Shown: piece after piece, positions 2,481-63,754 of the stretch
Position numbering within the stretch: position 1 is the first letter of the stretch
Layout: each line of letters opens with the position of its first letter
Source: Hydrolagus colliei
Taxonomy: Eukaryota
Direction: 5' to 3'
DNA: 64,000 nucleotides
Assembly: GCA_035084275.1 (NCBI GenBank)
Contig: CM068756.1
Span: 9,424,001 to 9,488,000, forward strand
Translations under genes and position numbers: made by a program
Notes under the pieces: model-generated
What the model was told of the DNA's origin: nothing
Seen by the model: the letters and a program-made list of their open reading frames with translations, nothing else
Databases searched by the model: none

Positions 2481-2655
2481 CAATAATAAATAATCCTTGC
2501 ATTTAATATAGTGCAAGTTCAAAATATCACAAAGTACTTCACAGAATATACTGTAAAGTGAATTGACTGAATATTTTGAGGGCGAAACGTAGAAGCTAAT
2601 TGCGAACAGCAATGTCCCACAAACAGTCATGGACTGAGTGACCAAACTATTTTTT
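2481..2655 (-). mobile_element. 3' half of a tRNA-derived Deu-type SINE
   Basis: (TAA)n tail, CCTTGCATTT and CAGCAATGTCCCACAAACAGTC core shared with the full copies at 12218 and 50723. Confidence 0.85.
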
Positions 2656-4009
2656 TTGATGGATTATCTCTGGAAAAGCGATCTGCCAATCGACTAACAA
2701 GCAGGATACTGCCCCCTCCCCACATATACATGTAAAACCTACTCTTAGAATGGCAACAGTTGCAATTTTAAGCTAGAGTCACATACCAATGTTTCTCATC
2801 GTATCAAATCTGTCACTTAACTTAATGTCCTGCTCCTTTGCCCTAGTCACCAGTTAGGTGTCTTGTATTGGCATGTCTTCATAGAGTCAGTGGTCCAACA
2901 GAGTTTGTAATTAGGTTGATGTACAGCACCAGTGCACTCATTATACTGAGCACTCGGAAGACTGCCCCTGAAAGAAAGCACGAGTGTGGGGTATTGTGAG
3001 AACCTGGTGGTTCAGCCAGCCAAGGGATTGGAGGCTCAGCAGGTCTCAATGTCGGTACTGATTTAATATAGCACTCATTTTAAATGTAGGAATCAGAACA
3101 GGATCATGCAATGAGGAAACTGAATACTATTCTCAAAATTCAGAGTTGCAAATTATTTATGCAGAACATTATATAACTAAACAAATCCATCAGAATACAA
3201 AATCATTCTTGTAAATTTTATTTTGGCTTCATAGAAGCACAGATTGTGGCTTAATACAAAAACTCCATTGACTTATAAGTTTCACCAACTTCTTTTGCCT
3301 AGTTTATCATAACTCAGTTTCATACTGACCAGCAGAAATTATTTCAGATTTTGTCTTACTTAAAATAATATATAAAACTATTTTATAACAACATTTGCTG
3401 TATGCTGGGAGTTGTAGTTTGATAGCAGACACAAAATCCAGTGGACGTGGAATCAGATTCCAACTCTCAGCATGCATAGCAAGGCTTTTAGCCAACCAGA
3501 AAACAGAGGCCACTCTTAGAAATTCACGTTCCCTTGGTAACCGTCCTTTGCTGTCAGACCATCAATAACAGATCAGTCTATAGAGGCTTATTAATTCATT
3601 AGAATTGTTGCAATTTACTCAAATTTTACTCAACCAAATTACTAAAAGAAAAAGGTTTCAGATCTTATGCAAACTAATACAATATAGTTTATTTGCCCAT
3701 GGAAAGCTATATTCAATGTTAAATGGAAAAGCAATGTATCTGCAATACATTGCAGAAGCTTAGTAGATTTGGTTGAGAGGGAGAAAACTGTCCAAACTTA
3801 AATGAACAATGTAAGAGATGAATTTCAGTTCTCATCTTAAGAGGTAGCAAAGTACTGAGTCTGCACTCCAAAAGTTATTTCAATCACAAAAATGTTCAAC
3901 AATACAACTGTGGTTTGCACTCTGAAAAGTATGCGACAAAAGTACTCAATACTTCAGGTATGCTGGATAGCACCTAACGCTGACTTTCCTGCCTTCACCC
4001 TCAACACTG

Positions 4010-4300
4010 CTGTCCTGAATGAGCCTTAATTTTCTCTAACTCAAGAGTCGACAAACCCGAGACGATTCTGCTCCACTTCATTTGGTTCCACCACTAGCCG
4101 CTCTCTCCAGTCTTCACAACTCTGATTCATGCCCCTTTCCCACTCCTCCTCACAAACAGAGATGAGCTTTCAGCCAATTTGACATTGCTTTCTGAAATCC
4201 CTCTCTCCAACATGCTCTTACCTTTTTACCTTTTCTGCTTTCAAAACCCGATTAAACACCTATCACTTTGACATTGCCTTCAGCTGTACCCCCACCTCCA
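4010..4300 (+). mobile_element. Degenerate L2-like LINE 3' fragment
   Basis: Pyrimidine-rich; gctttcagcc...tttcaaaacc...cactttgacattgcctt resembles the AFS..LWN..FK..LKT.LF end of L2 ORF2. Confidence 0.4.
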
Positions 4301-5329
4301 ATACTCCCCTCCCAGACTCGAGTTCCCATTCCCAAGTGGCATAACTATAATAGTACAGTTAGGCTAGGGACAACAAGGCTATGGCGGCCCAACCCATTGA
4401 TTGGGAGAGTTATCGTGGTGGAAACATACCTTTGTCCCGTCCCATTCACCCACCCCCACCCCCCGCCTGCTAATATTTGAGCCATATTAGAAATATCTAC
4501 CTGTGTTTTGGACTCAAAGCCAGTTGTTTTTAATTCAGAGGCTCCACTGGTCCACTCCCAACAAATTCCTCCATTTCCTTTTATGATATGGCTACATCAG
4601 CCTGGGGAGAGAATATGACTTGTGGTCTCTCACTCTCCATTTTGAACAAGTATGCGCTTTGCCGGGGAAACAGGGAACATAACACAAGGAGATGGATTGG
4701 GAGACTTTTTTCCAAAACGGTAAAGATAAGCAAAATTTTTGATTTCAGAACCGGAAAGGGGCCTCTAAATCATTCGTGTACCAGGGACTCTTGAGGCCTA
4801 GTTACCCCATTGCCTCTCTGCTTCTGTAAATTTCGTTTTTAGACCGTGAATTTTTTTTATTTTTTCCAACCGTGAAGGGTATCATATGAATGCAAACGGT
4901 TGTTTTTGTAGAAAAAAACACAATTCCAGTGATGGGGTATTTTTTTAAAGTGCTCTTTCAAGGTACAATACCAATTCTAATAAAGTACATGGAAGCATTT
5001 ATGTATTTCAAAACATATATCGACTTAAAATTCAAATCATCATATTTTGTGGATGGTGTGGATTATTCTTTGCATTTTCAGGCCATCCTACCTCTGACAA
5101 GTGATCTTTCTGAGCAACATGCAGCATGAAAGAAATATTTTATTCCATAAACGTAAATCATTAAAAGGTGTGCTCTGATCTCAAAATGACTTTTGGCAAC
5201 ACCTCACAGAACAAACAGCTCCTGCATTAATATTAAAGCTGTTTTATGTGTATATGATATAAATGCCGAAGTAAAAAAACATGAGAGAGCAAGGCTATCT
5301 ATCACTTACAGTAGGCCCATTTGCAGTCG

Positions 5330-6080
5330 TCACATTCAGATAGGGCACTGAATTTTCTAATGATCTGTTCATAAGCAGCAGCATTTCATGACCCAGCAGT
5401 GAAGAATGGAAAGCCTCCTGCTATGAGCTGAATGGAACCCTTTAGTTGGCTCCTTGAAGAGCTCATTTTCGCATTACTCAGGCTTCATTATGCTGAATCA
5501 ATATTCGTTTAGTCACTGAGGTTATTGACATATTTTAAAATAAAAGTATACCCTTCAGCTATTGCACTCATTACAGGTAATTTGTCTTGTCAGGGAGCAG
5601 GGAATATTATCGCAGTCTTTCGAGGACTGACAGCTCATGGAAATACCTCCCCATGGTTACAACTGTAAATAATTTTGTGGTAAAATATTGAAAAATCAAT
5701 GACTGTTTCCTGCAATCTGTCACAAACAAATCAATCATAATCTGCACAGTCAGGGAGTGTGATATAGGGAGGGAAGGGAGCAGATGCAATCTTCCAGTGA
5801 AATCTCTCATTTCAAAATCACTTCACATAATGGTGTCATCATTTAAACACTTAACAGTCATTGGAACTGCCGCTCACAGCGTGGAATGGGAAAACCATGA
5901 GAAGGAGAAAAGCCATCACTGTTGTATAAACAAACATTTAATTTAAATGGCTTTTGCATTAGCTGGTTGTATAAGTGAGGCCAACTACCTGTCAATATTA
6001 CATAGCAGTTTTTCTGCTAATCAATTATGTATGGCTCACATGAAGCACATGAACAATTTCACTGCAAATTAGCTCCTGTA
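5330..6080. promoter_or_regulatory. Candidate conserved non-coding element in a Sowah intron
   Basis: Repeat-free; Pbx-Hox TGATTGAT (5730-5737, -) next to Meis CTGTCA (5717-5722); TGACAG at 5628; many TAAT cores. Confidence 0.45.
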
Positions 6081-7737
6081 GGAACTTAAAGACTTTGATA
6101 TTCATAGGTTCTATAAAAGTAAGAATTCGACTTAACTGTTTTTGCTAGATACTATGAATATTGTTATTGCCTTACTCTAGTCTTCACAAAATAAAAATAC
6201 CTGTAGTGAATATGTGGCATATCAATTTAATCTGATAAGTAATGAATATATGAATTCACAATAGCATTCTATAGAGTCATATGTATCTATGAGCTGTATA
6301 ATAATCCAGTGCATTGTGGAAAAAAAGCACAGATGACTTGTCTTTCACCTCAAGTCACAGGTTTCAATACCCATAGGAGGAAGATGATGAAAAAATCTCT
6401 GTCTATTGCCGGAGGCCAAATGTATTGGACTGGCGACTATTATGCAGCTACTTAGAGGACTAAAGGTTTTGTGAACAACATGGAACAAAACATTGACAGA
6501 TACTGCATAGTGCACATACTCAACTCTGCCATGGATTATGGATGTTTCTCTGCAGTTTTTTTTAGTTTTTTTTAACCCAAATAATATTTGTCTCTTATGT
6601 TCCCTGGTTTCCCACATTTATATACTGGCTTTATATCATCTGAAAAGGCAAAGTAAAATGTATATAAATGATATAATCAATACTCAGCTACAATTGTTTT
6701 TGAAACTGACCAAAATCCCAGTTTGAAACTGACCATTTCACCCAGGAGTACAATATATATTATATATACAGTATATCTATATTTGTATGTTCATGTATAT
6801 TTCAATGTTTCTCCAAGTGTACTACGTTTCTTTTGATTACAAATGCCTTGCAATATTGTTTGAATTTATTTATCATTAACAAAGTACTACTGTAAAGTAT
6901 ACAGTACTGTAAATTTATATAATTATAATTCATGGTAACCTGTGACATATTATTTTAAGTTCTACATAACTGATTTGCACTGAAGAATCTCAATCAATGT
7001 AAAGCAGCATTATTGGAAATAAAGTTGATAATTATGCCTGCCGTGAATTTTTATATATACTTTATTCACATAAGTGTGAAAAAAAAGTTGTACATTTTCG
7101 AAGGGATGCTTTCCGTGCTAAACAGAGCCTTTACTAATTGTGAAAATCATCTTATTTGCTGCAGCCTTATGCTGGAAGTCTCATCTGGCAGAGAATCATG
7201 CATCCAGGGAGGCAAGATTAGGGAGTTCAAATGACAGGGGAAAGAGAAACAGTACTTCACTTCTGAGAGGAAAGTTAGAGGGTACCGCTGGTATCGACCT
7301 GCTAAATATTTAAGTATACCAACAATATAATTTGGGGGGCAAGGTGGCGGAGAGATAATGCTTAATATTTCTAACAGGTGAGTTCAAAACCAGGCCCAAA
7401 CAATGTGCTAAAAGTTGCATTGCTTCACTGGCTCTAAGGGTGAAATTGTTTGTCTCAACTGTTTGTAATAATCACAGCACAGTGTGAGAGAAGCCATAAG
7501 AATGACTAGTCTGGGAATGAAAGGTCACACTGATATGTTAGAGGTTCTCTGCTGTGAGTGCAACTGACATACATTGTTGGGTATTAAGAACAGAATAGAA
7601 CAAGCCTCACAGCATAGCTTAGAAAAGAGCAAACTTTATACCACAACTTGTAGCACATGATATAAACATAGGAAGTGTTCACTTCCCTAGCACCAATATA
7701 CAGTATTTCACTTTAATGAACATAAAACATCTTAAAC

Positions 7738-7866
7738 AAAAACAGAAGTCACTGGGAACACTCGGCAGGTCAGGGAGCATCTATGGAGAAAGGAAAGTAA
7801 GTAAACGTTTCAGGTCCACGACCCTACTTTCCAGATTTCCAGCATCTGCAGTATTTTGCATTTTGT
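7738..7866. repeat. Short chondrichthyan-type interspersed repeat remnant, possibly Penelope-associated
   Basis: aaaacagaag..ctgggaacactcggcaggtcagggagcatctatggaga..aacgtttcaggtc..ccagcatctgcagtattttg resembles a common shark repeat as I recall it. Confidence 0.4.
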
Positions 7867-8177
7867 CAAAACATCTTAAAGTTAATGCAATAATAGAAGG
7901 ATATTAAGCAGGATCTTCATTGTTAATACAGCAACATGTTTCACAACTGGAGCAGGTTCCCAAATGAAGCTGTCTATGCATGAGTAGTCTAGACAGATAT
8001 TTCAGGTAAGAATGGATCAACATATATAGAAAGGGAGCCTAAATGTGCAGTAACAGTGGTGTGACAGAATGCAGCATTGATTAAATAAACTCCTGTGTTG
8101 CTAGGGTTTCAGGCCTCCCTTAAAGAGATTGCTCTGCCTCATCCCATCCCTTGCCTCCTTCAAGGACCTCCTCCTTA

Positions 8178-8420
8178 TGATAATAATAATAATCCTTGCA
8201 TTTGATAAAGCACTTTTCACATCTTCTAGACATCTCAAAGCACTTCACAGAATATAATGTAAAGTGAATTGACTGTACATTTGTGGGTGAAATGTGGCAG
8301 CCGATTGCGCACAGCAGTGTCCCACAAACTGTCTTGGATTGAAATGACCAATGTTTTTTTTGAAGAATTCTTATTAGGCATGCGGAGTAAGGAAATTTGC
8401 CTAAGGTTTCACCCTAATTT
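8178..8420 (-). mobile_element. Deu-type tRNA-SINE lacking most of the head
   Basis: (TAA)n tail, GCAGCCGATTGCGCACAGCAGTGTCCCACAAAC core, ATTAGGCATGCGGAGTAAGGAAA linker as in the 12218 copy. Confidence 0.88.
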
Positions 8421-8582
8421 GCTTTTATTTGACCATGCTTTTGATCTACCTCCTTCCGCCTCTGCCCTCCACCCTCCCCAATTCCTACTCCAGCTCAGGT
8501 CTCGAATACTGTCTGTCCAGTGCCTTGGGAAGTCCTCAAGATGTGAAAGATGTGATACAAATGTAATTTTGTTGATGTTGCT
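8421..8582 (+). mobile_element. L2-like 3' end with (TTG)n tail
   Basis: tttgaccatgctttt...gtgccttggga...gtgaaag..atacaaatgtaattttgttgatgttg. Confidence 0.5.
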
Positions 8583-11500
8583 CACCTATCTTCTGGAATC
8601 GAGAAGAAATTTTCCATACCAGCCTTGGGATTTCTTGGTTTTCTCTATCTTTTTCTGGAAAGGTGGTGTGGTGTGGTGAAAGGAAGAGGTGACACCCGGG
8701 TGACCAATAAACAATAAAGAATAGTCCAAGTACTGTATTGGGTGTGATGGACAATAATGTCTATCACAATGATTTGAAATCTTGTAGTACACTAAAACAA
8801 TTAGAAAAAAGTGTTTATAAAAGTTGATATTGTGCAAACCGATGCAATTTTTCACTACACTTTGCAAATTTCGCAATAAAATAAATGGGACATATGGCCC
8901 ACCAAAAGTGCAATTGCTTCCCAGCAGTTAGCATACTACAGTACAATGGCACTTTTCCAATAGCTACTTTTCTTTCACTTAACTAATAAAAAAAACTTTT
9001 GAAATCTAATCCCATGAGTCAATGTAAGTCAAAAAAGTACTTTACTTAATTAAAAAATTTAAGTCATTAGCAGACTTACTTTCAGCCTGTAGTAATATTT
9101 GAGATGTAAGGATTTCAAGCTTATTATATATTGCAGCAATTATAAATTGGCACCTTGAATTCCATGTATAATTTTTAAAAATTCAATAATGACTAGAATC
9201 ACTTTGCTGATGAAACAGGCCACAGATTTTTTTCTGTTTCATCAGCAACACTAAGTTTACAGCACTACCCAATCTGGTTACAATAAAGAAATAAAACAAA
9301 CATTATAACAGATGTTGGATTTAATAAACTGAATATTTTAAATGTGTGAATATTTTAAAAAGGTTTAGTGGGTTAATTCAAAACACTTATAAATAATTGG
9401 AATGAACAAAGATAGTGTCATTGTAACAAACCAAATAAATGAGAACGAAATCATATGAATATTAATTGTTTTTGAAAATAATATGTTGCCAGATTCCCTC
9501 TCAATCCTTACAAATTAAATAACATATTTTACTATTAATGTTAAATAGTGTCAAAGCCACATGTTGGGTGAACAATGTAAATGTATTCTTCTATGCCAAA
9601 CGTAAACCTTTTATTTGATCATGGCTTTTATAACAGATTGTGACATTTCAATGAACTCTCATAAAACAGTGACATATTAGTAGATATGTAACATTGTTTT
9701 TGAAACTTTCTCTGATGAAGATCATCTGCTAATCAAACAATGATTGCCTGTCACATGGTGTTAACAAATGGCACATACACAGTGATAGCACATCTTTAAT
9801 TCTCCATCACTGCCATTTTAAAACAATACATACAGTACTTGGGTACAGAGCCTTAATGGTTGCTTAAAATTTAGCAAGTAGAGATTCTGATGCAGGTAGA
9901 GATTCTGGTGTAGACATATTCTAAGTAGAAGAATATATTCCTTCAGCTTCCAAAACTCGTGTTCAATGTTTTTTGCCATGAATGCACCTGTTGCGCAAAA
10001 ATACCAACTTAATAATATAAAAATATACGTTATCCTGACAAATACCAGTGCGATATGTCAAACCTGAGTTTATTCCACAAGAATGATACAAATGTATTTT
10101 CCTAATCTGATCTACTTATGTAATAATTATACTGTACTTGCATTTGATACAGTGTCATATAAAGATGTCTAGGTGCCTTGGTGTCAGGCTCAAGTACTGT
10201 ACTCTGAAACACTATACTAATCATAATGCTTCATGGGATATACCGCAGAAGTGGTGTGACTGTATTTTTGGCCAAAAGCACAATTCTCATATCACATCAT
10301 AGATAGGTTATTTGATTTACAATATGATTTCTTTCCCATTAACACTTTTCATGCTTCTTGATTTATTTTGCATTGATAACAGTATTGAGCTTGTTTTAAA
10401 CTATTGCAACAAAACAATTGCCTTCTAAGACTATGCTACCATTTAGTGTTTGACTTCTGGCCTGCTTAAGTCTCGATTGGATCACTGCAGACCTGACTGG
10501 TTTTGCGAAGCATCCTTAAGGTCAGTTGAACCCAAGCAAAATCCTGCTAACCTCACTTCTCCCAAATATCCAGATATTTTAAACCTTGCATCCATTTTAT
10601 CATCCGTAAAATGGTACATTATAGTATATTCAAACCAGCTCAACTAAATTACCTGGGATATTAGGTTATGAACTGTGATCAATTTGGTGTCTTAGATGTG
10701 GACTGCCTTCAGTTAGCTGAACAAATAAAGCAGTGATCAGATAAATTTGCATCTCAGAAAGACACGAGGAAGAAAAAGGTTGTGCTGAAGAGATCAAGAA
10801 AATTATCACCATCGAAGGTATATGATCTCTGAGGGAGATTTTGGTGGACTTTAAATTGATATGGATCGAGCTCATCGAGAGATCACCATCATTTTTATGA
10901 ATTTGTAAATGAAACTTACATTGGTATCAGTGACCTGGTTCTTAAGGAAGATCACAAATGATGTGATACTTTCATGAATAGGCCTGAACTCATCATAATC
11001 GGACTTCAATTTCTTGTTAATCAATCATTGGTTTCTGGGAATCTAGCTGTCGCTGGACACTAATTTTTAAGACTGGGTTGTACACTACTTTTTAAATAAA
11101 ACCATTACCCCCAATTTTCTAACTTGTCTTTACTATTTTCGTTACGAAGATTAAGGTGAATAATATTTTGAAGGGGAGAATAAGAAATACAAAGAAAAAT
11201 ATTATTAACGGGACTATAACATGAAAGTCCTCAGCTCTACAAAATATATTTAACTAGGTTTTCTTCCATGATGTATATGGAGTTGTCATACACATGTATA
11301 ATATTAGTCAGCAAAAAAACAGCCTTCAAATATTTTGTAACAAAATGACAAAAAGAACACAGGACAAAATAAAAAACTTTATAAATATAAATGTCTTTAT
11401 TTGTGAATTTTAAACAGTGTTTAATGTTTTCACTATTACACTCTGTGGCACAAAATAGCACTAAATATTAAAAATGGGTGAAAGACTGTACCATGACAAT

Positions 11501-12217
11501 ATGACATCACTGGTTCTCAAGTTAGTGAAACCCAACAAATAAATTTGTTGAAATCATGCATTTGGATTTTAAATGGATGGAGAGAAGCATTCTCTATATA
11601 TAATGAAGAGACAAAATTCCATCTCACACATATTTATGTTAAAATAAGTTCACAAACAGAATGGCGATTTCGCTAGACATGAACACAGTTCTCGATTTAA
11701 AAAAAACGTTCTTCCAACAATACGTTAAAAGAGTTGCAGCCAATATTTCTGCTTTCATGACATACTCTCACATTTGTTCATGCTGTTAATTAATATAATC
11801 ATAAACACCTATTTAGACATTCCGCGTCTAACCACCGTTATCAATCATAACAACCACAAAATCCATGATTTACACTTAAATATACACTCAATGATAAGAC
11901 ATTAATAATCTTGCTTCTATATAATAATGTCAATACATCTAAACAGGTTGTAAAGCAAACTAAGTTGGAAGTGAACCGAATTTAATATAATTATAAAACA
12001 CTCAATGTTCTAACATTAATTGAAATGCAACCTGGAATTTTTGATCAAATTACATAACAACCCACCAAAAATGTATGTTATAAATACATATGAGTATATA
12101 CGTTAATCTTTTGCCTATAAATGGACATAAGCCAAAAATATTGTAAGAACATAAGAATTTGCTAGACAAAAGAAGACCAAGGTCCATTTAGTAACCTTCC
12201 ATCAACCTGGAAGTCAC

Positions 12218-12549
12218 TTAATAATAATAATAATCCTTGCATTTGATACAGCGCTTTTCATATCTTATCGACATCTCAAAGCGCTTCACAGAATATACTG
12301 TAAAGTGAATTGACTGTATATTTGATGGGCGAATCGCAGCAGCCAATTGCGCACGGCAGTGTCCCACAAACAGTCGTGGATTGAAATGACCAATTTTTAT
12401 TATTGTGTTTTTTTTGTTCGACGGATTTTTATTAGGCATGTGGAGTAAGGAAACATGCCCACAGTTTTGCCCTGATCTGTCTTGATTCGAACACAGGTTT
12501 CACTCTTGTAAGGCCAGTACTCTAACTGCTGAGCTACAGGAACTCCACA
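12218..12549 (-). mobile_element. Full-length tRNA-derived Deu-type SINE
   Basis: Minus strand starts GTGGAGTTCCTGTAGCTCAGC (A box), then GTTCGAATC (B box), Deu-like core and (TTA)n tail; abuts a CR1-type tail at ~12145-12215. Confidence 0.9.
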
Positions 12550-12588
12550 CTCGACATGTTGTGTCCCAAACTATGTACAATAACTTAC

Positions 12589-12763
12589 TGGGTAGCCCTT
12601 CCTGGGTAGCTTCTTGGAGTGCTTAAACTGTATCCCAAGATACTATTTTCTGGCAGAAATGATTCTAATTTGTTCTTTAAACAAAAAAATATTCTGCTTC
12701 CGGTATTATTATCATTATTGTTGAGCACATGTAACATTTTGATCATTGCATTTGTTCCAAAAC
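12589..12763 (-). CDS. Candidate internal exon of the Sowah-like gene (phase 1 to phase 2)
   Basis: tttatttcag acceptor, CA|gtaagt donor, open frame FGTNAMIKMLHVLNNNDNNTGSRIFFCLKNKLESFLPENSILGYSLSTPRSYPGRAT; no homology recognised. Confidence 0.3.
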
Positions 12764-13599
12764 CTGAAATAAACGACTGGATCTGAAAAGATCAAAGAAT
12801 CACATATATGAGCAAACAACTAAAGTAATTACAGCTAATCGATGGATAGTTTTCACTATTCTTGATGAATCATTGTTCATTTAATTCATTGATCATTTAT
12901 AGCCAAAATGCATTTAAAAAGTGCTTGTAGAATTAATCTTTGACAATGAATCAGTACAATAAAGTTAGGATAAAATTAAATGAATGTCAGACTGGACTCT
13001 ACAAGTTAAGATGAAGTATATTTAGCATGATGGATATCCTATAGTGATTACAAGGTAGTAATCCCATTAACAGGTTCAGATGACGTCATAACCACAAGAG
13101 TGGAACTCAAGCACTTGACAACTGTCATTTGAACCCCACAACAAGATTACAACCTTGAAATCATTTCCATGCATTCATTGGTTTAATAATTCAATTTCAC
13201 AAGATGAAGGGGTGCTTTGGTTCTATTTTTTTCTTCATAGTGGATATTAAAGCACATAACAAGACCCATAGCATTTCACATAGTTTATGTTTGATGACAG
13301 TTACACTGTTCTGATAATACCACTACCCATTTATTGATTGATAACCAAAAATTAATCACTGCAATATGTCCTTGAGGTTTGATTAGAAAAATATCATCAA
13401 ACTCACATTTTTCTACTTAAATACTGGGGGTGTTGGAAATGTGGGAAATATAACTGTTAATCTGTGTTTCATTCATTTCAATGGCACATTCCAATTTTCA
13501 ACAGAATTTACAAATATTTTAATCATTAAATGGCTTCTGCTACACTCCCGTTTTCACATTAAAATCTCATAAATTCCAAACGTCAATTTTTTTTAATAC

Positions 13600-13945
13600 C
13601 AACTATTCTCTATGCTGACTTTCCAGTGAAAATAAGGAGAACTGCATTGTTGGAGGTGCCATCCTTCAGATCATACATTAAACTCTATCAACCTATTCAG
13701 GTGGATGTTAAATAACTCATTGTACTATTCAAAAAGAGAAGAGGGATTCTTCTGGTGAAGTGGTCAATAATCCTTCAGAGAAATTGGTCACTTGCCTCCT
13801 GGCTGTTTGTAGAACCTTCTGTATGCAAACTAACTGTTATGTTTGCTTAAACATACACAATCACTGCTTTTTCGTACTTACCTGTGAAGGACTTTGAGAA
13901 GTTGGGATATTACTGGAGCTATATCAAATGCAATGGTTATTATTA
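13600..13945 (+). mobile_element. Old DeuSINE copy (SacSINE1/AmnSINE1-like)
   Basis: gcattgttggaggtgcc..cttcagat..gtggatgttaaa..ctattc..gctgtttgt Deu-domain pattern, degenerate tail. Confidence 0.7.
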
Positions 13946-15525
13946 GGAGAATTATTATTTCATTAGGGAATAAGATGAAAATCTACTCATCCCTAGAAAA
14001 GCTTTGACCACGTGCTCAATGTACTTTTCCTGAGAATTTGCTCTTTTGGACACTTTTAGTTAGAGTAATGCTGCTTCAAACCCTTTACATAGTGGCTTGT
14101 GTGGCTATCTGTAATGAGTATGTGGACCACAAGGGACTAATTAATATCCTACCGCCAGTAGAAGCTACTTGTAATCGATAAGCAGCTCATTTGAGGTAAA
14201 GACATTTTTTCTGTCGAGTAGTGTATACCGGAGCTGTAATTTGAGGTCAGAATTGTGTTTTTGAAAATATGAACCGGTCCCACCCTTCCGCACCAGTCAG
14301 TGGTATTAACTGTACCTATAATTTGTCATTTCTCTAGTTAGGATGTTCAGTTCCTAATTTTGACATGTAACTGAGAGGTAAGAGCCCTGGAGGACACATC
14401 GAATATCAAGTATATGTCCTTAGACAGGCTGCAAAATAGCAATACGTGAACTGTTCCCAAGGCATTTTTTCACCCATCACTACACAAACATATCAACAAA
14501 CAAATCCATCATCAGCTAAACCACCCATGCGCAATTATATAGGAAGTAGAAGTGACATCCTCAAAGAGTTGGTTTCGATCCCAACAAAATATGGTTGACA
14601 ACTCATTGCATTAAACCCTTAGTTATTTTTAAATATAGTGTTGTAATACCAAACATGGACAATTCATGAAAGTTATGAAAAGTATTGTAGCTGTCTTTAT
14701 GACCTTTAGTTTTCTATTATGTGCTGTAAATTATATGTAATTTTCTATTTTCTGACTGACAAACAGGAAACAAAAGTCATAATTTGGGAAGAGACTTGGA
14801 CTGTTACTATAGGACACAAAACCACAACTCTTAAATAAATCTATACAAGCTAGTATTTTAAAATTATAAAGAACTCAAAAAACATAGAATCATTACTGGA
14901 CAACAAAATATTCTTCCAAACAGGATTTGAGTTATTGTTCTTAACTTATGCAAAATTATATTTTCATATTTCCAGAGTTACCAAAAAATACAAAGAAATT
15001 TAAAAACACGTAGTAATTAAGATTTCAATAGATACTGTACTGTATTTAGAAAATTAATTCATTATTTTTTGTAAATCAATTATGTCTTTAGAGTTTCTGA
15101 TTCTTGAAAGAGTCTCCCTAATCACTTTGTGGTGGAATTTATTCCAAATGATAAATATGAAGTCCTTAAAATACTGTAAGACAGTATTGGTAACACTGCA
15201 ATACTGTATATACAGTACTTTAAATGCTTCCAGCACTGTGTAAAGTAATGATGATGTTCAAATGCCAGGAAATGTCAACATCATAACATTTACCCTTAAA
15301 AGTCACAATAGGAGCTTGATATGTTGGGAGTACATCTTTAAATAAAAACACATCAAAATAAATATCAATGTAGCAAAAACACTACTCTCATTGATCAATT
15401 GATAAACTTTATATTGAAACAGAATGTTTACTTACATGTGTTTATATTTATTTACATTTGTTTACCAAAGCAATACTGCATTTTCGAAACAAATTAAACC
15501 ATGAAGGAAATGGACAAATGTGGGG

Positions 15526-15597
15526 TCACAAATCCAACTGCAGATGCTGCTTCTGATGACTTATAAATATAACATACTTTTTAGTTTTAGAGGGATC
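15526..15597 (-). CDS. Candidate Sowah exon 3, DPSKTKKYVIFISHQKQHLQLDL then stop
   Basis: Phase 0 after cattag; resembles the Sowah DPDGTKYVVL motif that follows the exon 2 segment; weak pyrimidine tract, 127-nt intron. Confidence 0.35.
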   Translation of the reverse strand, partial: DPSKTKKYVIFISHQKQHLQLDL

Positions 15598-15724
15598 CTA
15601 ATGAATTTTTTTCAACGCTATATGCTGATTATGTCCACACAACCCAGCAGACTTGCTAAAACAAAAAGAAATTATAATATGATATCTTGCTTATATTGAA
15701 CAGAAATAAACAGAACAGCCTTAC

Positions 15725-15786
15725 CTCTTCTTCAGTGATAATACCAACTTTTGAAAGGACATCTCTGAATTGTTTTCGGTTTCTGT
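15725..15786 (-). CDS. sowah2: Sowah-family gene exon 2
   Basis: ctttatttttag acceptor and GAG|gtaagg donor; 62 nt, phase 1 to 0, in frame with exon 1; (D)RNRKQFRDVLSKVGIITEEE fits Sowah RxxFKxxVNxVAxVxxE. Confidence 0.75.
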
Positions 15787-18387
15787 CTAAAAATAAAGAT
15801 ATTAAAAAAAGTTTATTTTATTAAGAAGCTTTCATTGCCAGCTGGATATATGCAAAGATATTAGTTATTGGTTTAACGATAACTAAGTTACTGATAAAAA
15901 AAGTTCAGCGCAAAATGTTTTATTTTTCCTTTATTAGTGTATTATCCTGGGAGTCAATAACCATCATACATTCTCCTTTCACCAGGATAGGATGATCTGG
16001 ACCTCCATTCATGTTCATCACAATGATTATCCTACAGGAGGTGCATTTACAGTCAGGCGAGCCAAATATGTCAGTTTTAATACCCCCTCCCCACCATCCC
16101 ACCTCCCTCAACTTGTCCAAGGTGGAACATCTTGCCATAGCATGGGGCTCCATCTACTGTAGCATCCCAGCCAAGAAATGATGAAGTTCACTCCAAACAG
16201 TGGCAGACAAACTTGACTGGCAGACACAACTGGCACTCCAACCCACAACCATCTGTTTGTGAGGCAAGTACTTTACCACCTGTGCTAGCAATGCACATAA
16301 TAACTATACATCTTTGTTACAGAATTCCAAGATTTCAAAGGTGCAATTGAACAAGCATACATGGAATTAAAAACATTGTGATTTCTGGAGGGAAATATAA
16401 TTTCATTAAAATGATATCAGTGTTTATATCAATAAATATTTGAAGTGTTACTGACATGCTCCTATAATCTAAGCACAGAGACTGGGCATAAAGGCATGAT
16501 GTTACTTAGAGAATACAGCTCAGTGAGAAAATAAAAGGCTTCCATTTCTGTTCACTCTTACCTTTAGGCAAATATGAAATTAAAACAGTAGCCACACCAA
16601 TATCAACTTCTATCTAGAAAACATCCTTATTATTTGAGTGTTGCAACAATTGTTGCTCATTTTACAAATTGGGACAGATTTATATAAAAAATACACCTTG
16701 GCTACACAAAACAATTGATAACAGACTCTTTTTTTAAGTTATTTTCCATTTTCCAGCACTAAAACAACCTGAAAATAAAAGTGACTCCACAAACAATTAT
16801 AGTAACCCACTTATAAAAGAATACCAAAAGATGTGACAGTTCTTACACTAATTTGATCAGTGATTTTCTATAGCAAATGGAAATTTTGATTTTCTAAAAG
16901 TTACTACATAATGAGTGCAGTACTATACTGCATTATATAATAATTATTGTCAAATGAAAATAAATCTCAATACCATTATCTAAAGACAATCTTAGAGGTT
17001 ATATAATATATATTTTTAAATCATATTGTGCCAGAATAATTTGTCCCAACTCATCAATGTGTAAATTTATTGTTAAAGTTTCAGAAGAATACACATATTG
17101 CTGATCAATACTAACATTATCTATCCATTTTGGTCATGTTTGTTTTGCAAAAAATACCTGACTAGAAACTGCGTGACTCACTGCAAATCTGCATTGTTTG
17201 ATTTAAGTAAATTTAAGCTTTATATAATGGTAGGAGCAGACATTTTTGCATCAGAACAAGTTTTCCAACTGAATAGTTAAATGCTACCCTCAATGCTCAA
17301 TGTTAAGCACAAATTGATTCATACTGTAACAAAGTTCATATAATTCACATTTTAATATTTTAAAATATTAAAGAGTTAAAGTCAATATTTAACAGATGAA
17401 GTAGCCAATTAAATAGCAATAGCTAATTACTGATATATCTTAGTACAAGTTTCAGATTTGGAAAATACAAATATTAATGTAGCTCTTACATTGCCAATAT
17501 ACAAATTATTATGAAACTATAATGCTATAGTATTTATTTTGGATATCTCTAAATATTCAACGGATTATTAACAGAATATGCAACACCATTTAAATGGTCC
17601 ATTTTAGTCCACCGAGTACTTTGTATTTCTATTCAACGGTAATAAAAGTAGGTTTGTTCTTTTTGACATGTCCTGCTGTAATTGTATGCCTGAAAAGTAA
17701 AATTGCAGACACGAATATTGCAGAATTAAACTACAGTAATTCAATAAGCCAATTTGCAAGCTTTACACAGACGTGTTCTCAAATACTGTGCTGTAGGGAA
17801 AAAATTACAATTAAAATTAAAAAAAGTCAGTTATTCTTAGCGGAAAGGAAAATGTAACTTTCCAGCAATTGAAGCACCACATAAAACCGAGAAAAGTCTG
17901 TTTACTCAAAATGCTGCTGAAGAGTGCCAGTTTAATCAAAGCAAGCAATGTGGTCCGTAATCAGGGCCATTATAAAATAAGGAGCAAGTTTCCGTTGACG
18001 GCCCTGGAGCGTGTACGAAAAGAACAGCAGTTTCACAATTACTTTCCGTGTCCTAACAAAATCACACGGACAACTTCAATGTCTCTCTCGCTCTCTCTGC
18101 CTGTCCATCTCTATATACTGTATAGATATAGGTTTCATGCTATTCTAATGACGTCGAAAATAAAACTTAATGCAAACGCGGAGAATTAATTGCTGGCCAT
18201 TCCTCCCGAATTCGGAGTCAGTAAAGGAACGATTAATTGTCCAATGAATTGATGAAGAAGAAGACGAAAATAGAAAATAAAATGAACAAACACGAGTTCA
18301 AAGCCTCCGGGCTAATCCCAGGGATTTAAACTGCGTTTTAAAAAAAACAGACAGCAGGATAGCAGCGACTGTCACCCACTTACTTAC

Positions 18388-18526
18388 CCCTGACGTCTGG
18401 CGCGGCGTGGTACAAAACCGTCTCAAACATGTTGACCAGTTCTGCATATTTTATCTTGCCCCCTCTGTCGTGGAGTAGAGTGAGAATAAAATCCACCTTC
18501 GGCTCCTGCGATGCCGCCGAGGTCAT
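18388..18526 (-). CDS. sowah2: Sowah (sosondowah ankyrin-repeat family) gene exon 1, N-terminal domain
   Basis: ATG at 18526, MTSAASQEPKVDFILTLLHDRGGKIKYAELVNMFETVLYHAAPDVR, G|gtaagt donor; fits Sowah SQE..LDFL...GG.V.NA.L..HF..FL; lies in a CpG island beside an Irx gene, matching known Irx-Sowah synteny. Confidence 0.8.
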
Positions 18527-18584
18527 CCTCCCCCTCCTCCTCCTCCTTCTTCTTCGTTGCAGCGTCTCCTCCTTCCCGCTCACA

Positions 18585-18910
18585 CCGCACTTCCGGTCGC
18601 CAACCGCGTTACCTCGGCAACGACGCAGCAGCCCGGAGGAGCTCGTTTCGTCACCGAGTTACCAATATGCAAATGAGGCAGCCCGGACCACCAATCGACG
18701 ATCATAAGCGTGGGAGGAGCGGGGAAAGGCAATGCGGCGCGCTGCATCTCGGGACGTATAGTTCTTTGCTTGCGTTGGCCTGAGGTGAGGGGGGGGGGTG
18801 TGTGAAGGAATGGGACTACATCTCCCAGGCTGCCTGGTGCCTCCTCTTCACTCCTGCTACTCGTCCATCACTCCCAGATTTTCCAGGCAATGGCAAGCCA
18901 CGTGACCGGC
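18585..18910. promoter_or_regulatory. CpG-rich Sowah promoter
   Basis: ETS CACTTCCGGT 18588-18597; RFX X-box GTTACCTCGGCAAC 18608-18621; CCAAT at 18662 and 18691; octamer ATGCAAAT 18667-18674; ZNF143 motifs 18743-18762 (-) and 18815-18828 (+); CACGTGAC 18899-18906. Confidence 0.8.
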
Positions 18911-18984
18911 GGTGAGCGTTGGCAGTTGCAGCACCTTCAGAGCCGCCCGCAGCAGGCGTCTTCAGCTCAGCCTGGCTCCAGAGG

Positions 18985-19030
18985 CAGAGAGTGAGTGAGT
19001 GAGTGAGAGAGAGAGAGAGAGACAGACTGA
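18985..19030. repeat. (GAGT)n/(GA)n microsatellite
   Basis: Seen directly. Confidence 0.9.
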
Positions 19031-21962
19031 GAAAGTTTAAGTCAATACAAACAAGAAAATAATCTAATGCCTCGCGTCCATAGACCTAACATCAAACGCA
19101 ACGCGGGTAATATTTAAGGTGGCATCGAATAATGAATGGGGTCGATTGGTGGAGGTAATCATTTGCACCTAAAACCGAAAGATGTCGTGAAAAGCACAAA
19201 TTTGTGTAAAATCGAGGGTGTGTGTCGTGATATGATTTCCGATAGCGGCCACCCCAACCCCCCCCCCCCCCCCACCCCCACCCCAAAAAAACAACAACAC
19301 TGTTTGGATGGTATGGTGTGTGGCATGTTTTTTTTAAATAAAAAAAAGGTTTTCCATTCGTAAAAAAAATGATTTAAAAGCGCATTTGCCGTGTGCGCAA
19401 CGCTAAGTAATGCTTTGGCAATGGGTGTGCGCGCGCGTTTGTGTGTGTGTGTGTTCTGTCGCCTTCCAGAAGGATCGTGGTGATCGACCTTAAAATACAG
19501 GTATTGTTAAGAGGTGACGCAAGAATGTACTTGTAAATTTATAAACACACACGTGTAAGACCTATGTTTCAGCAATGTGTGGGAAAAAAAAGTTTTATCG
19601 CGAAGTAGCTTTAAAATGTGCGCATTTTTTGTTTGTTTGGGGGAAGAGTGCACGTTTTGCCAATGCTGAAATGTCTCCCAAGGTTTTTTTTGAATAACAG
19701 TGGTCATTCGCCTGTATAAATTTAGCTCTAGTAAGAGATGATTTCTGAAAGCTGTGGAATTAAGCCTTTAATCCACACCCAGAAAAAAAAAGTAATTGAA
19801 AGTAACAAAAACGGATTATATACAGATGAGAGCAAGAACAAACGTCTCAATCAACCATTAACATAGAATAAATAATATTATCAGAGCATTGTATTGTATG
19901 GGCAAAGAGCTTTATTATATTTATGGACCGAACACAACATTCAATGCGCAGATTAATCTCGCAGGGCAAAAGACTTTGAAAACTATCGATTTATGAGATT
20001 GTCTACTGAGATATGGGCCTGAGCAGAATAGCTGCTATAAGCAGACAAAGAGAATTAAATAAGTCAGGATATGTTCGTGTTGAGAAATATATCTGGTGGA
20101 ATCAAAGGAGATTACATCCGTTGATCGGTAGGGATTTATCCCAGTTCATATGGTTTTAATCTGCTTTCGCTTCTACCCTTTTATGAGTTTTAAAGAAGGG
20201 ATACCTGGTTCGTTTATTCGCTTTTATCCACCAGTAAACACTCATTTTGAGCTTAGAGTTCAAGACAGCGAATAAGGTAGTGCTAATATGTACCGGAGCT
20301 TAAAACCACACTCCTCTTTACAGATTGGAATTCTTCCAAAAATCTGATATGATTCAAAAAATATAAAACAAACTACTGCATTGTTATATGCTGCTGAAAT
20401 ATTGTTTCATTTTCCATAGAGCAATAGAGCTTCCAGTGTACTTCAAATCTAATTATTTGCAGACCAACCCTAACGCCATTTGCTTGAATTTATATCAAGT
20501 TAAGAACCTCTAAATTACAGAAGAAAATAATTGTTTCAGCAAATCACATTGTTCAGAAACATTATAAAGCTTTGTAAAGCATTATAAAGCGTTTTAATTA
20601 AAATTAGATTTGGAGAGATGGCAGTTCGGATAGTTGTATTTATATATTATAGTTCAAATTCAAGTTAGTTTAAAGCACAAATGACTTGCAAGTGTCTTCA
20701 TTTTGTGACCTGTACACCCAAAAGTTTTAGAAATAGGTTTGTCTAAAGATTACCAATCAGTTAACATTTTTAAAATGTCTCTGCCGTCAATCCAATTGGG
20801 AGTAAGATATTGACTGAAGGCCCTCCTCAAGATTGCAATAAACTGTATGTGGAACTGCAAATGTATTTGAAGAATGTGTTGTGTTTTCTATCATTTTAAA
20901 ATAAAATAAGCTCTGTTTTAAAAAAAAATCCAGAAAGATACTGTGCTTTAATTATCCAGTACAAGGGCATTTTCACCTCTGACCTCTCATTGTGTGTTTG
21001 TCTATAATTTCAAAATTTCCTCAGTTCAGTGGCTTCAAATATTACATTTTGAATGCAATATCAGGTAAGTAGAATGAAGACTTAACTATGTGGTTTGAAA
21101 TCAATGCAAAAAAAGCTTGAAATTTACTTTCACACAACAGTTAAAGAAAACGTCCGTTTTGATTTAGCATATATGGAATTTTAAATATCAATCTCAAATT
21201 CCAAAAGTTCATTCCTAAAATACATATATAAATTATATCTAGTATTAGTGTATTATCACCATGTAAATGTGACTGCAATACCAATATAGTAACATGATTA
21301 TTAAATATTTGTTGAGCTATATAGAATCGACATCTACTTCAGTATTCTCTCATTCATGGTATTTGCATTTCCACACAAGCTTACATCACTCATGACTAAA
21401 TGGTAACCTAATAAGTCTTCACCTCACCAAGAAGCTCTCTTATTAAAGGCACTAAAATGCAAAATTTCAAAAAGCACCAACTAACTCTTTGACTGTGACA
21501 ACCACGGCCATCAAAACCTTCAAACACCAAAAGGCTGCAACAAAGGCAAAGTCTCAGAACTCACAGATGTTGTCAACAGCTGCACTACAACTGTGCAGCA
21601 GCTGGGTGAAAGGACTTCAGTGAATTTCTCTTAAGCACAAGTTAATTTTCCAAAACTATGCATGCTCTGAACAGGAATTACTCTCATCAGAAGTGTGTGG
21701 ACCAGTTAAAACTCTGTACATATTGTTGCAGCGTATTGCCCTTAAAACAAACAAGAACTAAATAATGTAGGGTTGTAAAGTAGAAAGAAAACAAAGTGTT
21801 CTTTAAACAGATGACTTGCACACTTGACACAAAAAATGCAATAGCTTAAGGTGTACCACAGCTAATGAAAACAAATCATGCTTTCATTTCCTTCAATGAA
21901 AGGAACGTGTATTCGTTCTATTAGCAATTTCTTTGGTTAATATGTGTATCTATGTTAGTAAT

Positions 21963-22010
21963 TTAGCAGAACAGGCTCGACAGGCTGAATGGCCTACTCT
22001 TGTTGGAATG
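21963..22010 (+). mobile_element. CR1 3' UTR remnant
   Basis: gcagaacaggctcga..ggctgaatggcctactcttgtt resembles the CR1 tail at ~63510-63560. Confidence 0.6.
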
Positions 22011-23729
22011 TACTTATTTTAGTAAAACCTTCCTATTGTCGACAGATTAACCTCGGTGCACAATGGACTTCAGTGTCACATTAACAAGCAATATATACTG
22101 TTCCCTAATAATACCACAAAGTACAGGTTATAATGGCTACTGAGAGCATGGTGTCCACAGATTGCTTATAATCCACTACATACTTATTAATGGCTGCAGG
22201 CCTACTGTGAATCTATGGTTCTTCTCTGTGTCCAGCATTCCAGTAATGTGGATGCTTGCTGAGATTCACTGGAAAGGCTTGAGGATTCCCCCCACAACAA
22301 TTAGTTCAGCTTCAAACATCCAAAGTAAGAAGTATGCCATTGAAAACCTGATATAAAGTGTGGTGTCAGTTCCCAAGGGTATAATAAATCCAACATTAAC
22401 TGCAGTTTTAAGGTAAGATATTGCTCATCAGGTTACAGAAATTACTTGCAATGTCCTCAGCCTTCAGTTTCAGGCATTATAACAGATGTTCAGTCATTTG
22501 TGTAACCCTAGAATCAATACTTTACTGCTGTAGCCCTCAAGTACAAGTAACATTTGTATAATAGATTTGTACCAGAGACAAGATTTTGGGTTAATATGGA
22601 CTTCAAGTTCACATTGCCTTCTGAGGAGCATAAATTCTGAACCTCTGAAACTCAAATGTTAAAACGAGATCGCAAGTCAAACTCATTGTCGTTTTTACTC
22701 ATGGAACTCAGCACAGGTGAAAGAAATGGCTCTATAAATTTATAGAATTACTTATATAATGATTTATCATATGCTAAAGAGACTAGGCAATTAAATATTA
22801 GCCATACACATCCTCAACATAAACCTGTCTCAGCCTTATCTTCTCCCTAATATTCTACCACGATTGCCTTGTCTTATTAATATCTAAATAAATGTTCAAC
22901 TTTGATCAAATTTACTTAGCGAGAAAATGAGCCCATATTAACATAACATAGGTATGCAAGAGGAGAACAATTTATTCCAGTCGTCAGGGATTGTGGTTGC
23001 CGTTTTATTTTGGAGTTAAATTTAAGTTGAAAACAGTAACCCATTACAACCCTTTATGCAAACATAGCTTGTACCTTTTTGTTAACAATAACCTGGGTTT
23101 TATTGCTTGTAATGTTACTTATTAAAGACCGGTATTCATTGGTGACAATAAGCGAGCATTAGTGAAAAGGGAGTTTCTCATACTTTATGGGGTTTGCAGC
23201 CAAGTACAGTATATGTTATAATTACAAAGAAATATATATAATGTACATATAACAACTATATCATCAACTGCAAATCATTCCTCAATATTTTTTCAGTAAT
23301 GACAAAACAGTTGTTAATCCTTCAGTGTGAACCTCATTATCCGTCAGTGATATGGACTGCACTGGCAGCTGCTGGCAGAACAAAAAACAGACCTGAAATT
23401 GAATCAAATCACCATCAAATTAACCGTATATGCTGCTAACAGCATATAAAAATAATACCCTGGAGTGATTTCTAGGCAATAACATGATCTCTGGGTTCAG
23501 GAGATTGCTTAGTGGCATTTTATGACATTAGCTGCACCCCTAGATTAGGCAATGCAAGATCTGCAATTGTCATTTTAATACCTGGAAATGTTACGATGAA
23601 CAAACGTCCCGATTTAAAAATCTACGTGTAATAGATATACATACACCTGTAACGCCGAACAATAATCATCCCTCCTATTCAATCTGAAATTATTTGAAAG
23701 ATTAATTTAGGGGAAAAAAAGCTTGTTTC

Positions 23730-24285
23730 CAGTGCGTCCGGCTTGTATTTCGAATAAACTCATATGGTTGTGCTATGATTCGTCGGGCTCCTGTCACGTA
23801 CAGTACTGTATTAGCAAACTAAGTTAAGTTGCTGGAGCCTGGTAGAAGATTGCCATCCAGGGGCCGGCGTACTTGAGCCTTGGAAAGAGGCTTTTTTCCA
23901 GTGAGAGAGAGAGAGAGAGAAAGCCTCTCATTAGGTTGGTTTTGGCACCCCATCAGGCTGCCTGCCTTTCTTCCATTGACAACACCCTGATAGGAGGAGC
24001 TGCGAGTGCGTAGAAGGCGTCAGAAATCCTCAATTTCTAACTTGCATCTTGCAGGACCTTCTCTAAAGCAGCCCCATCCAAAGGAAAACTTCTGCAAGCA
24101 AGTAAACACTGAGTGGGAGAGTCAGCTCAGCAGCTGACAGACAGCACAGACCAGGCAAGCTGCCGGCCGCTGCTCTCTGTGACTGCCGATCACACCAGTC
24201 ACACAAAAACCTTTGGAAATATCGACTGTTGATTTTTTTCTCTCTCTCTTTATATATATATATTATATATAAAAATCTTAAAGCC
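23730..24285 (+). promoter_or_regulatory. Irx5 proximal promoter and 5' UTR (TSS not determinable)
   Basis: Raised CpG directly upstream of the ATG; (GA)n at 23903-23920; CCATTGACAAC; GCCATG Kozak context. Confidence 0.6.
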
Positions 24286-24522
24286 ATGTCGTATCCTCAG
24301 GGCTACTTGTATCAACCGTCAGCTTCTTTGGCTCTTTACTCGTGTCCAGCTTACACTACGAGCGTCATATCGGGACCCAGGACGGATGAACTTGGGAGAT
24401 CTTCCTCGGGCTCTGCTTTCAGTCCTTACGCCGGATCTACAGCCTTCACAGCCGCGTCCCCGGGTTATAACAGCCACCTCCAGTACGGTACAGATCCGAC
24501 CGCCGCCTTCACTTCCTACGTG
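24286..24522 (+). CDS. irx5: Iroquois homeobox 5 exon 1
   Basis: [23 protein letters not shown]...AFTSYV is the Irx5 N-terminus; GTG|gtaagt donor, phase 0. Confidence 0.97.
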
Positions 24523-24989
24523 GTAAGTTCTGCTTTTCTTAAGACACCATATTTACAATGTATTCATTATAACTCTTCCACATGACATACTTGGTGCCTT
24601 CCCCCCCCCCCCCCCCCCCACCACCCTCACCCCCCACCACCCCCAGTGATCTTTCAGCAGCTCACATCTCTCTCTCTCTCCCTCTCTCTCGCTTTCTCCG
24701 TTTTTTTAAAGAAAAAACTTTTTGTTTTAGTTGCTGCAGTCTGGTGTTTTATTTGATACGATTCATTTCGTGTCCAGATCAGCGCCGTGCTTTTTTTTTA
24801 ATTGAAAAAAACATAAATGTCATTGAAAAAAAACCTGTAATGGAATCGCATTCGGCTAGCCCTCGTTTTTTCTTAATGTTGTTTAAATGGTTATTTGCAC
24901 TAACTTATACGAACACTCACAGACTAAACGCGTTTGCTACCGACCAATGTGTTTTTTTTTAGTTTTGACGGGTGTTTGTTGTGTCTCAG

Positions 24990-25395
24990 GGCTCTCCCTA
25001 TGACCACTCAACGGGAATGGCTGGATCTATAGGATATCATCCCTACACAGCTCCTTTAGGCTCTTACCCCTACGGTGACCCAGCTTACCGAAAAAATGCC
25101 ACCAGAGATGCGACTGCCACTCTCAAAGCCTGGCTCAACGAGCACAGGAAGAACCCCTACCCCACCAAAGGCGAGAAGATCATGTTGGCCATCATCACCA
25201 AGATGACCCTCACCCAAGTGTCCACCTGGTTTGCCAACGCCAGGAGGAGGCTGAAGAAGGAGAATAAAATGACCTGGACGCCGAGAAACAGGAGCGAAGA
25301 CGAGGAAGAAGAGGAGAACATAGATCTGGAGAAAAACGACGACGACGAGCCGCAGAAGTCATTAGAGAAGGGCAACTCGTCGGAAGCAGAGTCAG
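24990..25395 (+). CDS. irx5: Irx5 exon 2: TALE homeodomain and acidic stretch
   Basis: tctcag|GGC acceptor; [63 protein letters not shown]; TCAG|gtgag donor, phase 1. Confidence 0.98.
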
Positions 25396-25808
25396 GTGAG
25401 AAGTGGATGAATATTTTATTTTAAAAGTCATTTCTAATCAAGACGCGGAATTGATCACTTGTTAACGATGGCTTGTTATTTATAATGCACATATGTGTGC
25501 GGATACTACGCACCGATTTTCGTTTGAATCCTAATTATGTTTGACCTACACGTGCCTACAACCTAAAATAGGTTCATATAAGGGGGAAAGCAGATTCCTG
25601 TGTCTGTGCGTATTTTTAAAAAATCATAATCAAACTGCTAGAATTCCTGCTGCATTAAGAAATAAAACTCTCCCGCAGTTTTGAATTTTCCACTGGAGTA
25701 GTGTGAAATAATGCATTTCAAACTAAATGGTTGCCTCTATTTTATTTGTTTCTCTCTCTCCCCCCACACCCCACCCCGCCCCACCACCCCCCAACGGATT
25801 GGAAACAG

Positions 25809-26548
25809 GAGATCCGAAAAGCAACCTGGTCGAAACTCCCTGTGAAAGATTTGAAGATGAAGAACCCAACAGTAAAGAAAGTGAACATATGATTAGCGAT
25901 TCGGAGTTAAAAGACCCCGAAGAAAGGGAGAGCTCAGAGTCGCCCAAAGCCACCACTTCTTCTGTTTCCTCGCTGCTGGTGCCTCACGGAGCCGAGCTCT
26001 TGCAAGAAACCAACGACCCTCAAGTGGAAAACACACGTACAAAGCCAACTCACCCCCCAACTCACAACACGGGCTCCAGCAATGTGACTTCGGTCATCCA
26101 TTCCACACCGGCAGCCACCTCCTCTAAGCCCAAACTCTGGTCTCTGGCCGAGATCGCCACCTCGGACAAGTCGAAAGAACAGAGCGAGCCACAGCAGAGC
26201 ATGTGCCCGGGTCAGGGCTGCCCGGGTGCCGTGTCGGCCAGCAACTCGTCCCCGTCTCACTCCCCCTGCCCTTACCCGAACAGCGCTGTGCTGGGCCGCC
26301 CTCTCTACTACACCTCGCCCTTCTACCCCGGCTACACGAACTATGGCAGCTTCGGGCACCTTCACAGTCACCACGGAAGCGGCTCCAGCACGCATTTCTC
26401 TTCCAATGGATTAAGCCAGACTGTCTTGAACCGAGTAGAGACTCTGGTAAAACTCAGTCCTGAGATTAAAACAAAGAGCCCGGCACAAATAGATCATTGC
26501 AAGGACACGTCATCTTTTGATTTGAAGAAAGGTATGTCGAATATTTAA
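25809..26548 (+). CDS. irx5: Irx5 exon 3: IRO box and C-terminus
   Basis: aaacag|GA acceptor in phase; IRO box KPKLWSLAEIATS; RPLYYTSPFYPGYTNYG; ends KKGMSNI-stop; total CDS 1383 nt. Confidence 0.95.
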
Positions 26549-63563: not shown

Positions 63564-63754
63564 GTATAAAGTTGTAGAGCAGAACTGAACATGCAAACTG
63601 TCTTTCTGGAAAGTTGCCACACAGTGATCTCGATGAGCAAGTGAGAGAGGACTAATCAGAAGTTTATTTTCTCTTTGCAACGGACCATGATTATCTGCCA
63701 TAATTGGAAAGACTTGAAATTCTTCTCACCTTGCTGACATCGATTGTTTTGCCC

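Follow-up and report, generated by a model that had tools for sequence, protein, structure and literature searches.

Maeso et al. 2012 (Genome Res 22:642) are said to have described a spliced Sowah gene linked to Irx genes, with conserved elements in its introns and with replacement by retrogenes. The Irx-Sowah block and its pseudogenised remnants in tetrapods are credited to that study in PMC5803294 (here and below, statements on published work refer to the accessible part of each source). Transitions from coding genes to long non-coding RNAs (lncRNAs) likewise form a known class, with Xist derived from Lnx3 and JPX from USPL (Hezroni et al. 2017, PMC5577775). Both systems bear on a 64,000-nt stretch of the Hydrolagus colliei genome (assembly GCA_035084275.1, contig CM068756.1, here C23, positions C23:9,424,001-9,488,000; hereafter the window), where a Sowah gene, Sowah2, is divergent from Irx5 and carries in its second intron the orthologue of the ultraconserved element (UCE) of the lncRNA CRNDE. 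We propose, with a probability of about one half, that tetrapod CRNDE is the decayed 5' end of the Sowah2 transcription unit, inherited as a whole.

Human CRNDE lies opposite IRX5, about 2 kb apart (PMC11291168; PMC3509318), in agreement with the earlier note on this DNA. A survey of eight species found CRNDE in its tetrapods, with zebrafish not listed, and reported a CRNDE-IRX5 distance of 2 kb in human and 1.2 kb in chicken (Muret et al., PMC6868825). In mouse Crnde, the first exon is followed by one of 64 nt and this in turn by an intron of 3.8 kb (Hezroni et al. 2017, PMC5577775), which, judging from the human layout, would hold the UCE. Mouse Crnde also has distal exons at a distance of about 30 kb, and a reading frame of 106 aa. 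The CRNDE peptide has been reported as primate-only, and it is thus not a retained Sowah protein.

A coding gene holds this position in the chimaera. The ATG of Irx5 (24286, plus strand) and that of Sowah2 (18526, minus strand) are divergent and separated by 5,760 nt, and the Sowah2 promoter has its own CpG island, at about 17,500-20,250, with a CpG observed/expected ratio (o/e) mostly of 0.7-1.3. Coordinates and CpG profile therefore bear out the initial description of a Sowah first exon with a separate promoter; exon 2, however, lies at 15786-15725 and not at 15526, as had been noted. Sowah2 is an intact gene of a chimaera-type IrxB cluster, with ten exons extending from window position 18526 to C23:9,258,651 (183,875 nt), eight of them beyond exon 2 and outside the window. 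The exons, mapped with Callorhinchus milii proteins and exclusive of short linker micro-exons, show canonical splice sites, consistent phases and zero stops, the exon-6 acceptor being located 3 nt inside the printed exon start. Exon 1 has AG/GT sites and is 89% identical to the N-terminus of C. milii SOWAHC-like proteins (4 matches for 10 candidates). The homeobox gene at 24286 encodes a TALE homeodomain (Homeobox_KN, E 4.7e-19), and since it resides on the FTO contig with the CRNDE UCE upstream, it corresponds to Irx5 and not to Irx2. Because FTO (C23:8.97 Mb) is situated past the 3' end of Sowah2, the latter runs toward the Irx3 position.

The human UCE sequence was printed by Lee et al. (2024, bioRxiv 2024.07.23.604857; PMC11291168 supplement 4), and printed human CRNDE sequences were compared up to 400 characters per entry. 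Alignment by eye of the human UCE with window positions ~5960-5455 gave identical runs of about 60, 66 and 36 nt. A published 22-nt UCE primer has one exact match (0.00 expected, none in 100 shuffles), and the element is single copy by a megablast-type search. It lies 18.3 kb from the Irx5 ATG. A position between Irx5 and the Sowah promoter would have meant the failure of the CRNDE-from-Sowah idea, for which the earlier note had asked for collinear shared elements; instead, the UCE was found in Sowah2 intron 2 and on its sense strand. The order of parts is also alike, namely exon 1, a small exon (62 nt in Sowah2, 64 nt in mouse Crnde) and then the UCE-bearing intron. Collectively, the positional and element-level homology of Sowah2 and CRNDE is real and well anchored. 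Since Sowah2 holds the CRNDE position and has the UCE core in its intron 2, CRNDE is likely the worn-down front of Sowah2; descent of the transcript itself is likely but unproven.

The locus conforms to the Irx-Sowah block, since an intron-containing Sowah gene with winged-helix and ankyrin regions adjoins an Irx gene and carries a deeply conserved non-coding element within an intron. Irx linkage, splicing, intronic conserved elements, tetrapod remnants and retrogene replacement are common to both. What differs here is the link to CRNDE and its UCE, absent from the searchable literature, as well as turtle and penguin gene models suggesting that amniotes retain recognisable exons and still splice them.

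To follow the fate of Sowah2 across vertebrates, 768 Sowah homologues (120 listed) and 282 matches to a Sowah2 profile (150 listed, 30 looked up by name) were considered. Sowah2 proteins among the matches listed come from chimaeras, a shark, gar, bowfin and teleosts, and this distribution of the full gene is complementary to that of CRNDE, found in tetrapods. Four turtles, a penguin, a coelacanth and a lungfish are among the looked-up matches, which otherwise belong to ray-finned fish or are without taxon (7); no mammal, amphibian or squamate Sowah2 appeared among these 30, and its absence from mammals is also reported in PMC5803294. The lobe-finned forms are all truncated: coelacanth LOC106703735 (188 aa) has exons 1-3 and no ankyrin, lungfish LOC122810404 (231 aa) has exons 3-6, the models of the four turtles (120-170 aa; RBU57_014061 of Macrochelys among them) cover exons 2-3 or exon 3 alone, and the penguin model M6G45_008910 (124 aa) covers exon 3, its similarity stopping abruptly as if frameshifted. 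Turtle exon 3 is 62-66% identical to that of coelacanth. Two turtle models have the exon 2-exon 3 junction, one of them with an additional upstream exon, and two read through the exon-3 donor into a peptide that matches the chimaera intron start. Since this intron start is conserved, these models represent the genomic orthologue rather than a retrocopy. The tetrapod and lobe-finned remnants are gene models, and we infer their position beside IRX5. In a tree of 24 rows, built from the first 300 residues of stored proteins and the first 120 of intronless ones, the truncated forms all group with Sowah2 at a support of 91/100, which is under the strong mark of the tool. The window gene falls in the same group, separately from the other spliced Sowah type, found on C26, and from the intronless copies. 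A search of the ESM Atlas with a turtle fragment gave no usable match.

Several observations accompany these models. Coelacanth, turtles and penguin show strong conservation of exon 3 with the first bases of the next intron (C23:9,408,267-9,407,990), which suggests a constraint on the DNA itself. The Sowah2 models of sevengill shark, bowfin and gar likewise stop in the ankyrin region or at its border, and the matches listed include no further shark protein recognised as Sowah2; either erosion of Sowah2 may be under way in several lineages, or its annotation may be broken by micro-exons.

The chimaera genome also contains four intronless SOWAH loci and the second spliced Sowah on C26 (C26:7,099,654-7,149,798), which is placed tail-to-head upstream of a lone Irx gene. 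Four lobe-finned proteins among the 120 listed (from two caecilians, coelacanth and lungfish) group with the C26 type, so that some tetrapods likely keep an intron-containing Sowah, to judge from this grouping and from isoform names. With Sowah2 coding in outgroups and intact here, truncated in coelacanth, lungfish, turtles and penguin, with redundant SOWAH paralogues present, and with CRNDE sharing the position and strand of Sowah2 relative to the anchors, CRNDE probably adds one more example to the lncRNAs that remain from coding genes since lost. Like the lncRNAs of Hezroni et al., it has the position and strand of the lost gene, paralogues of that gene, enhancer-like shared DNA and apparently little exon similarity; unlike them, it would reflect a loss older than their mammal-focused set, and graded intermediates exist. 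In the accessible part of that work (PMC5577775), mouse Crnde is only in the sheet of conserved lncRNAs and not in the paired list.

The UCE has a paralogue at C2:55425441-55425695 (264 nt, 64% identity, E 6e-16), which has the same orientation and is 19.6 kb upstream of the ATG of Irx2, and a weaker trace at the presumed Irx3 island (E 0.004). No Sowah remnant was found near Irx2 by tblastn with seven Sowah proteins over 120 kb (95 kb of it upstream), and metagenome scans for non-human UCE copies found 0. Judging from these matches, the UCE is older than CRNDE and persists without Sowah; its presence at Irx2 without Sowah thus fits an Irx enhancer duplicated along with the clusters, a function that is predicted here from sequence. 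According to the initial proposal, the transcription unit may have been retained because of intronic Irx enhancers. Such an enhancer could account for the survival of the DNA, as the Irx2 paralogue suggests, but not by itself for the survival of transcription.

These data could be accommodated in a scenario of four steps. First, the UCE would be an old Irx enhancer, predating the IrxA/IrxB split, which pinned the Sowah2 intron in place. Second, intronless SOWAH retrogenes and Sowah1 would have made the Sowah2 protein dispensable, the lobe-finned lineage giving up in turn the ankyrin exons (as in coelacanth), the exon-1 frame (as in turtles) and finally the exon-3 frame (as in penguin). Third, the promoter may have kept firing while the CpG-poor spacer shrank and the two islands merged, leaving a residual, poorly spliced transcript that became CRNDE. 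Fourth, the snoRNA-like (small nucleolar RNA-like) role reported for the human UCE would have been acquired later by the RNA. In its fullest form, which we put forward only tentatively, CRNDE would be the still-running Sowah2 unit including promoter and exon 2, with each stage seen in living animals (the complete protein in chimaera and gar, a protein without ankyrin in coelacanth, an exon 2-3 fragment in turtles, a broken exon in birds, a lncRNA in mammals) and with an enhancer older than jawed vertebrates recruited as a snoRNA-like RNA of ribosome assembly.

Several results weigh against inheritance of the whole unit. The distance between the two starts is 1.2-2 kb in chicken and human versus about 5 kb in chimaera, that from exon 1 to the small exon 4.9 kb in mouse versus 2.6 kb, and that from the small exon to the UCE about 1.9 kb in human versus 9.8 kb. 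In human, CRNDE and IRX5 share one common CpG island (PMC3509318). The human 64-nt exon resembles turtle exon 2 at chance level (p 0.23, 0.32 and 0.76), and no position in 15,500-24,300 could be assigned to the turtle first exons, their scores lying within those of shuffles, in a weak scan in which even exon 1 of coelacanth, a true match, did no better than equal the top shuffles. Furthermore, divergent lncRNAs beside developmental transcription factors are common, with 665 positionally conserved promoters (PMC5853149). Homology of CRNDE with Sowah2 in promoter, exon 1 or any splice site is not demonstrated, and the initial claim of descent is supported in part, by the UCE in intron 2 and by the truncated Sowah2 from coelacanth to turtles and bird. 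On the other side, two in-frame 7-mers are common to the human 64-nt exon and chimaera exon 2 (simulation p 0.0075, in frame 0.0012), a suggestive statistic but one picked post hoc, after the data were seen. The human 64-nt exon also seemed to resemble turtle exon 2 at the codon level, a reading that was rejected as its scores were at chance. For human exon 1 and the first exon of the chimaera, likenesses noted by eye (a 9-mer and a 7-mer) were judged to be chance from expected k-mer counts, which were not computed.

It is possible, though clearly less probable than inheritance of the whole unit, that CRNDE is a chimera, with a new start at the edge of the IRX5 CpG island, the transcript splicing into or reading through the inherited Sowah2 exon 2 and intron 2, and the old exon 1 becoming the conserved block of CRNDE intron 1 (gVC-In1). 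Indeed, such a block is present in CRNDE intron 1 (PMC3509318), and Irx5 and the small exon lie at comparable distances from each other (about 7 kb in human and in mouse, about 8 kb in the chimaera), whereas start sites differ. The turtle first exons look GC-rich and have no winged-helix similarity despite the conserved exon 3, and lncRNAs from lost coding genes often take new promoters (Hezroni et al., PMC5577775). On the other hand, mouse Crnde and Sowah2 agree in that the longest AUG frame of the former opens 139 nt ahead of the donor of exon 1; this may be chance, since the printed 400 nt of human CRNDE exon 1 contain no ATG. The human CRNDE promoter also appears partly independent of IRX5, having two separate factor-binding regions and high expression in sperm, in contrast to the low IRX5 there (Ellis et al. 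2012, PMC3509318), and CRNDE silencing leaves IRX5 unchanged (PMC11291168).

A separate origin, in which Sowah2 transcription died and CRNDE is a new divergent IRX5 transcript merely covering old enhancer DNA, seems improbable. It would suit the chance-level exon test against turtle, the frequency of positionally conserved lncRNAs at developmental genes, the persistence of the UCE at Irx2, and the observation that conserved parts of CRNDE are intronic and not exonic (PMC3509318). However, the turtle models that join exons 2 and 3, one with an upstream exon, suggest transcription into amniotes, and the distributions of CRNDE and of full Sowah2 are complementary. Finally, the idea that Sowah2 was the ancient host of a C/D snoRNA-like intronic RNA, selection on which kept the transcript after protein loss, is very improbable: the human UCE, for which snoRNA-like features are proposed, does act in trans in 60S biogenesis (Lee et al., PMC11291168) and the C box is kept (window 5842, minus strand), but the D box at the published position is broken in the chimaera element (other CTGA motifs at 5753, 5593, 5558 and 5481), the 12-nt rRNA guide (5644-5620) would by eye pair at 9/12 positions with the human rRNA target, with two more mismatches than the 11/12 of human, an Rfam scan of 19.8 kb gave no snoRNA family and one chance-level miRNA match, conservation reaches far past the boxes, and the Irx2-side paralogue exists.

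Relative to the human CRNDE UCE, the chimaera element is thus orthologous, with long identical runs and a kept C box, but is intronic in a coding gene, has a diverged D box and guide, and has an ohnologue at Irx2. Its extreme conservation is older than CRNDE and than the D box and guide that have been reported, and so more likely reflects an Irx enhancer. If so, deletion of the UCE DNA would be expected to act on Irx3 or Irx5 even apart from the RNA, a point to be considered when CRNDE knockouts are interpreted. The literature examined does not explain the origin of CRNDE, a lncRNA much studied in cancer. No Sowah-CRNDE link was found in the searchable literature, a scope outside which Maeso 2012, de la Calle-Mustienes 2005 and Graham 2011 fall. 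If CRNDE does descend from Sowah2, with a coding ancestor and intermediates that still exist, it would rank among the oldest coding-to-lncRNA transitions that can be traced.

Table. Features of the Sowah2-Irx5 interval, in window coordinates
Feature	Position	Strand	Remarks
CRNDE UCE (gVC-In4) orthologue	~5455..5960	-	within Sowah2 intron 2, sense to Sowah2
Sowah2 intron 2, window part	1..15724	-	31,457 nt whole; exon 3 at C23:9408267-9408013
Sowah2 coding exon 2	15725..15786	-	62 nt
Sowah2 coding exon 1	18388..18526	-	139 nt, winged-helix domain start; coelacanth remnant maps here, E 1e-7
Sowah2 5' untranslated region (UTR) and likely proximal promoter	18527..18700	-	predicted
CpG-poor spacer between Sowah2 and Irx5 islands	20500..23500	.	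about 3 kb; from CpG profile
Irx5 coding region	24286..26548	+	exons about 24286-24522, 24990-25395, 25809-26548

Within the predicted proximal promoter of Sowah2, several motifs were labelled, which we take to be CCAAT-type boxes (18695 and 18666), an octamer (18674), an RFX X-box (18621) and an ETS site (18596). Further along the gene, the alternative exon of C. milii isoform X6 is kept at C23:9,325,049-9,324,996 but with a stop, and is probably a non-coding element.

Another Irx gene is present on C23 at 9.68 Mb, with a paralogous pair on C2. Two protein searches and a pattern search of the assembly recovered no Irx3 or Irx1 homeobox; the expected Irx3 site (C23 about 9.119-9.128 Mb) is occupied by a CpG island that includes a short N run. 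The Irx2 CpG island (C2:55,439,500-55,445,300) extends about 5.8 kb upstream of the ATG, which equals the distance from the Sowah2 start to Irx5. This extension is possibly a leftover promoter island; no sequence match was found. At human IRX2 there is a divergent lncRNA; no paper on a bidirectional promoter of C5orf38 and IRX2 was found in the searchable literature.

The window also contains fragments of LINE reverse-transcriptase ends, presumably CR1-like, and several dispersed SINE-like repeats (591-1472, 48567-48777 and 63213-63565). On the 3' side of Irx5, non-coding blocks at 35300-35504 and 33101-33183 have paralogues 3' of Irx2, one pair being 68% identical over 211 nt (E 6e-19) and the other weaker (E 0.035); these blocks are likely duplicated enhancers.

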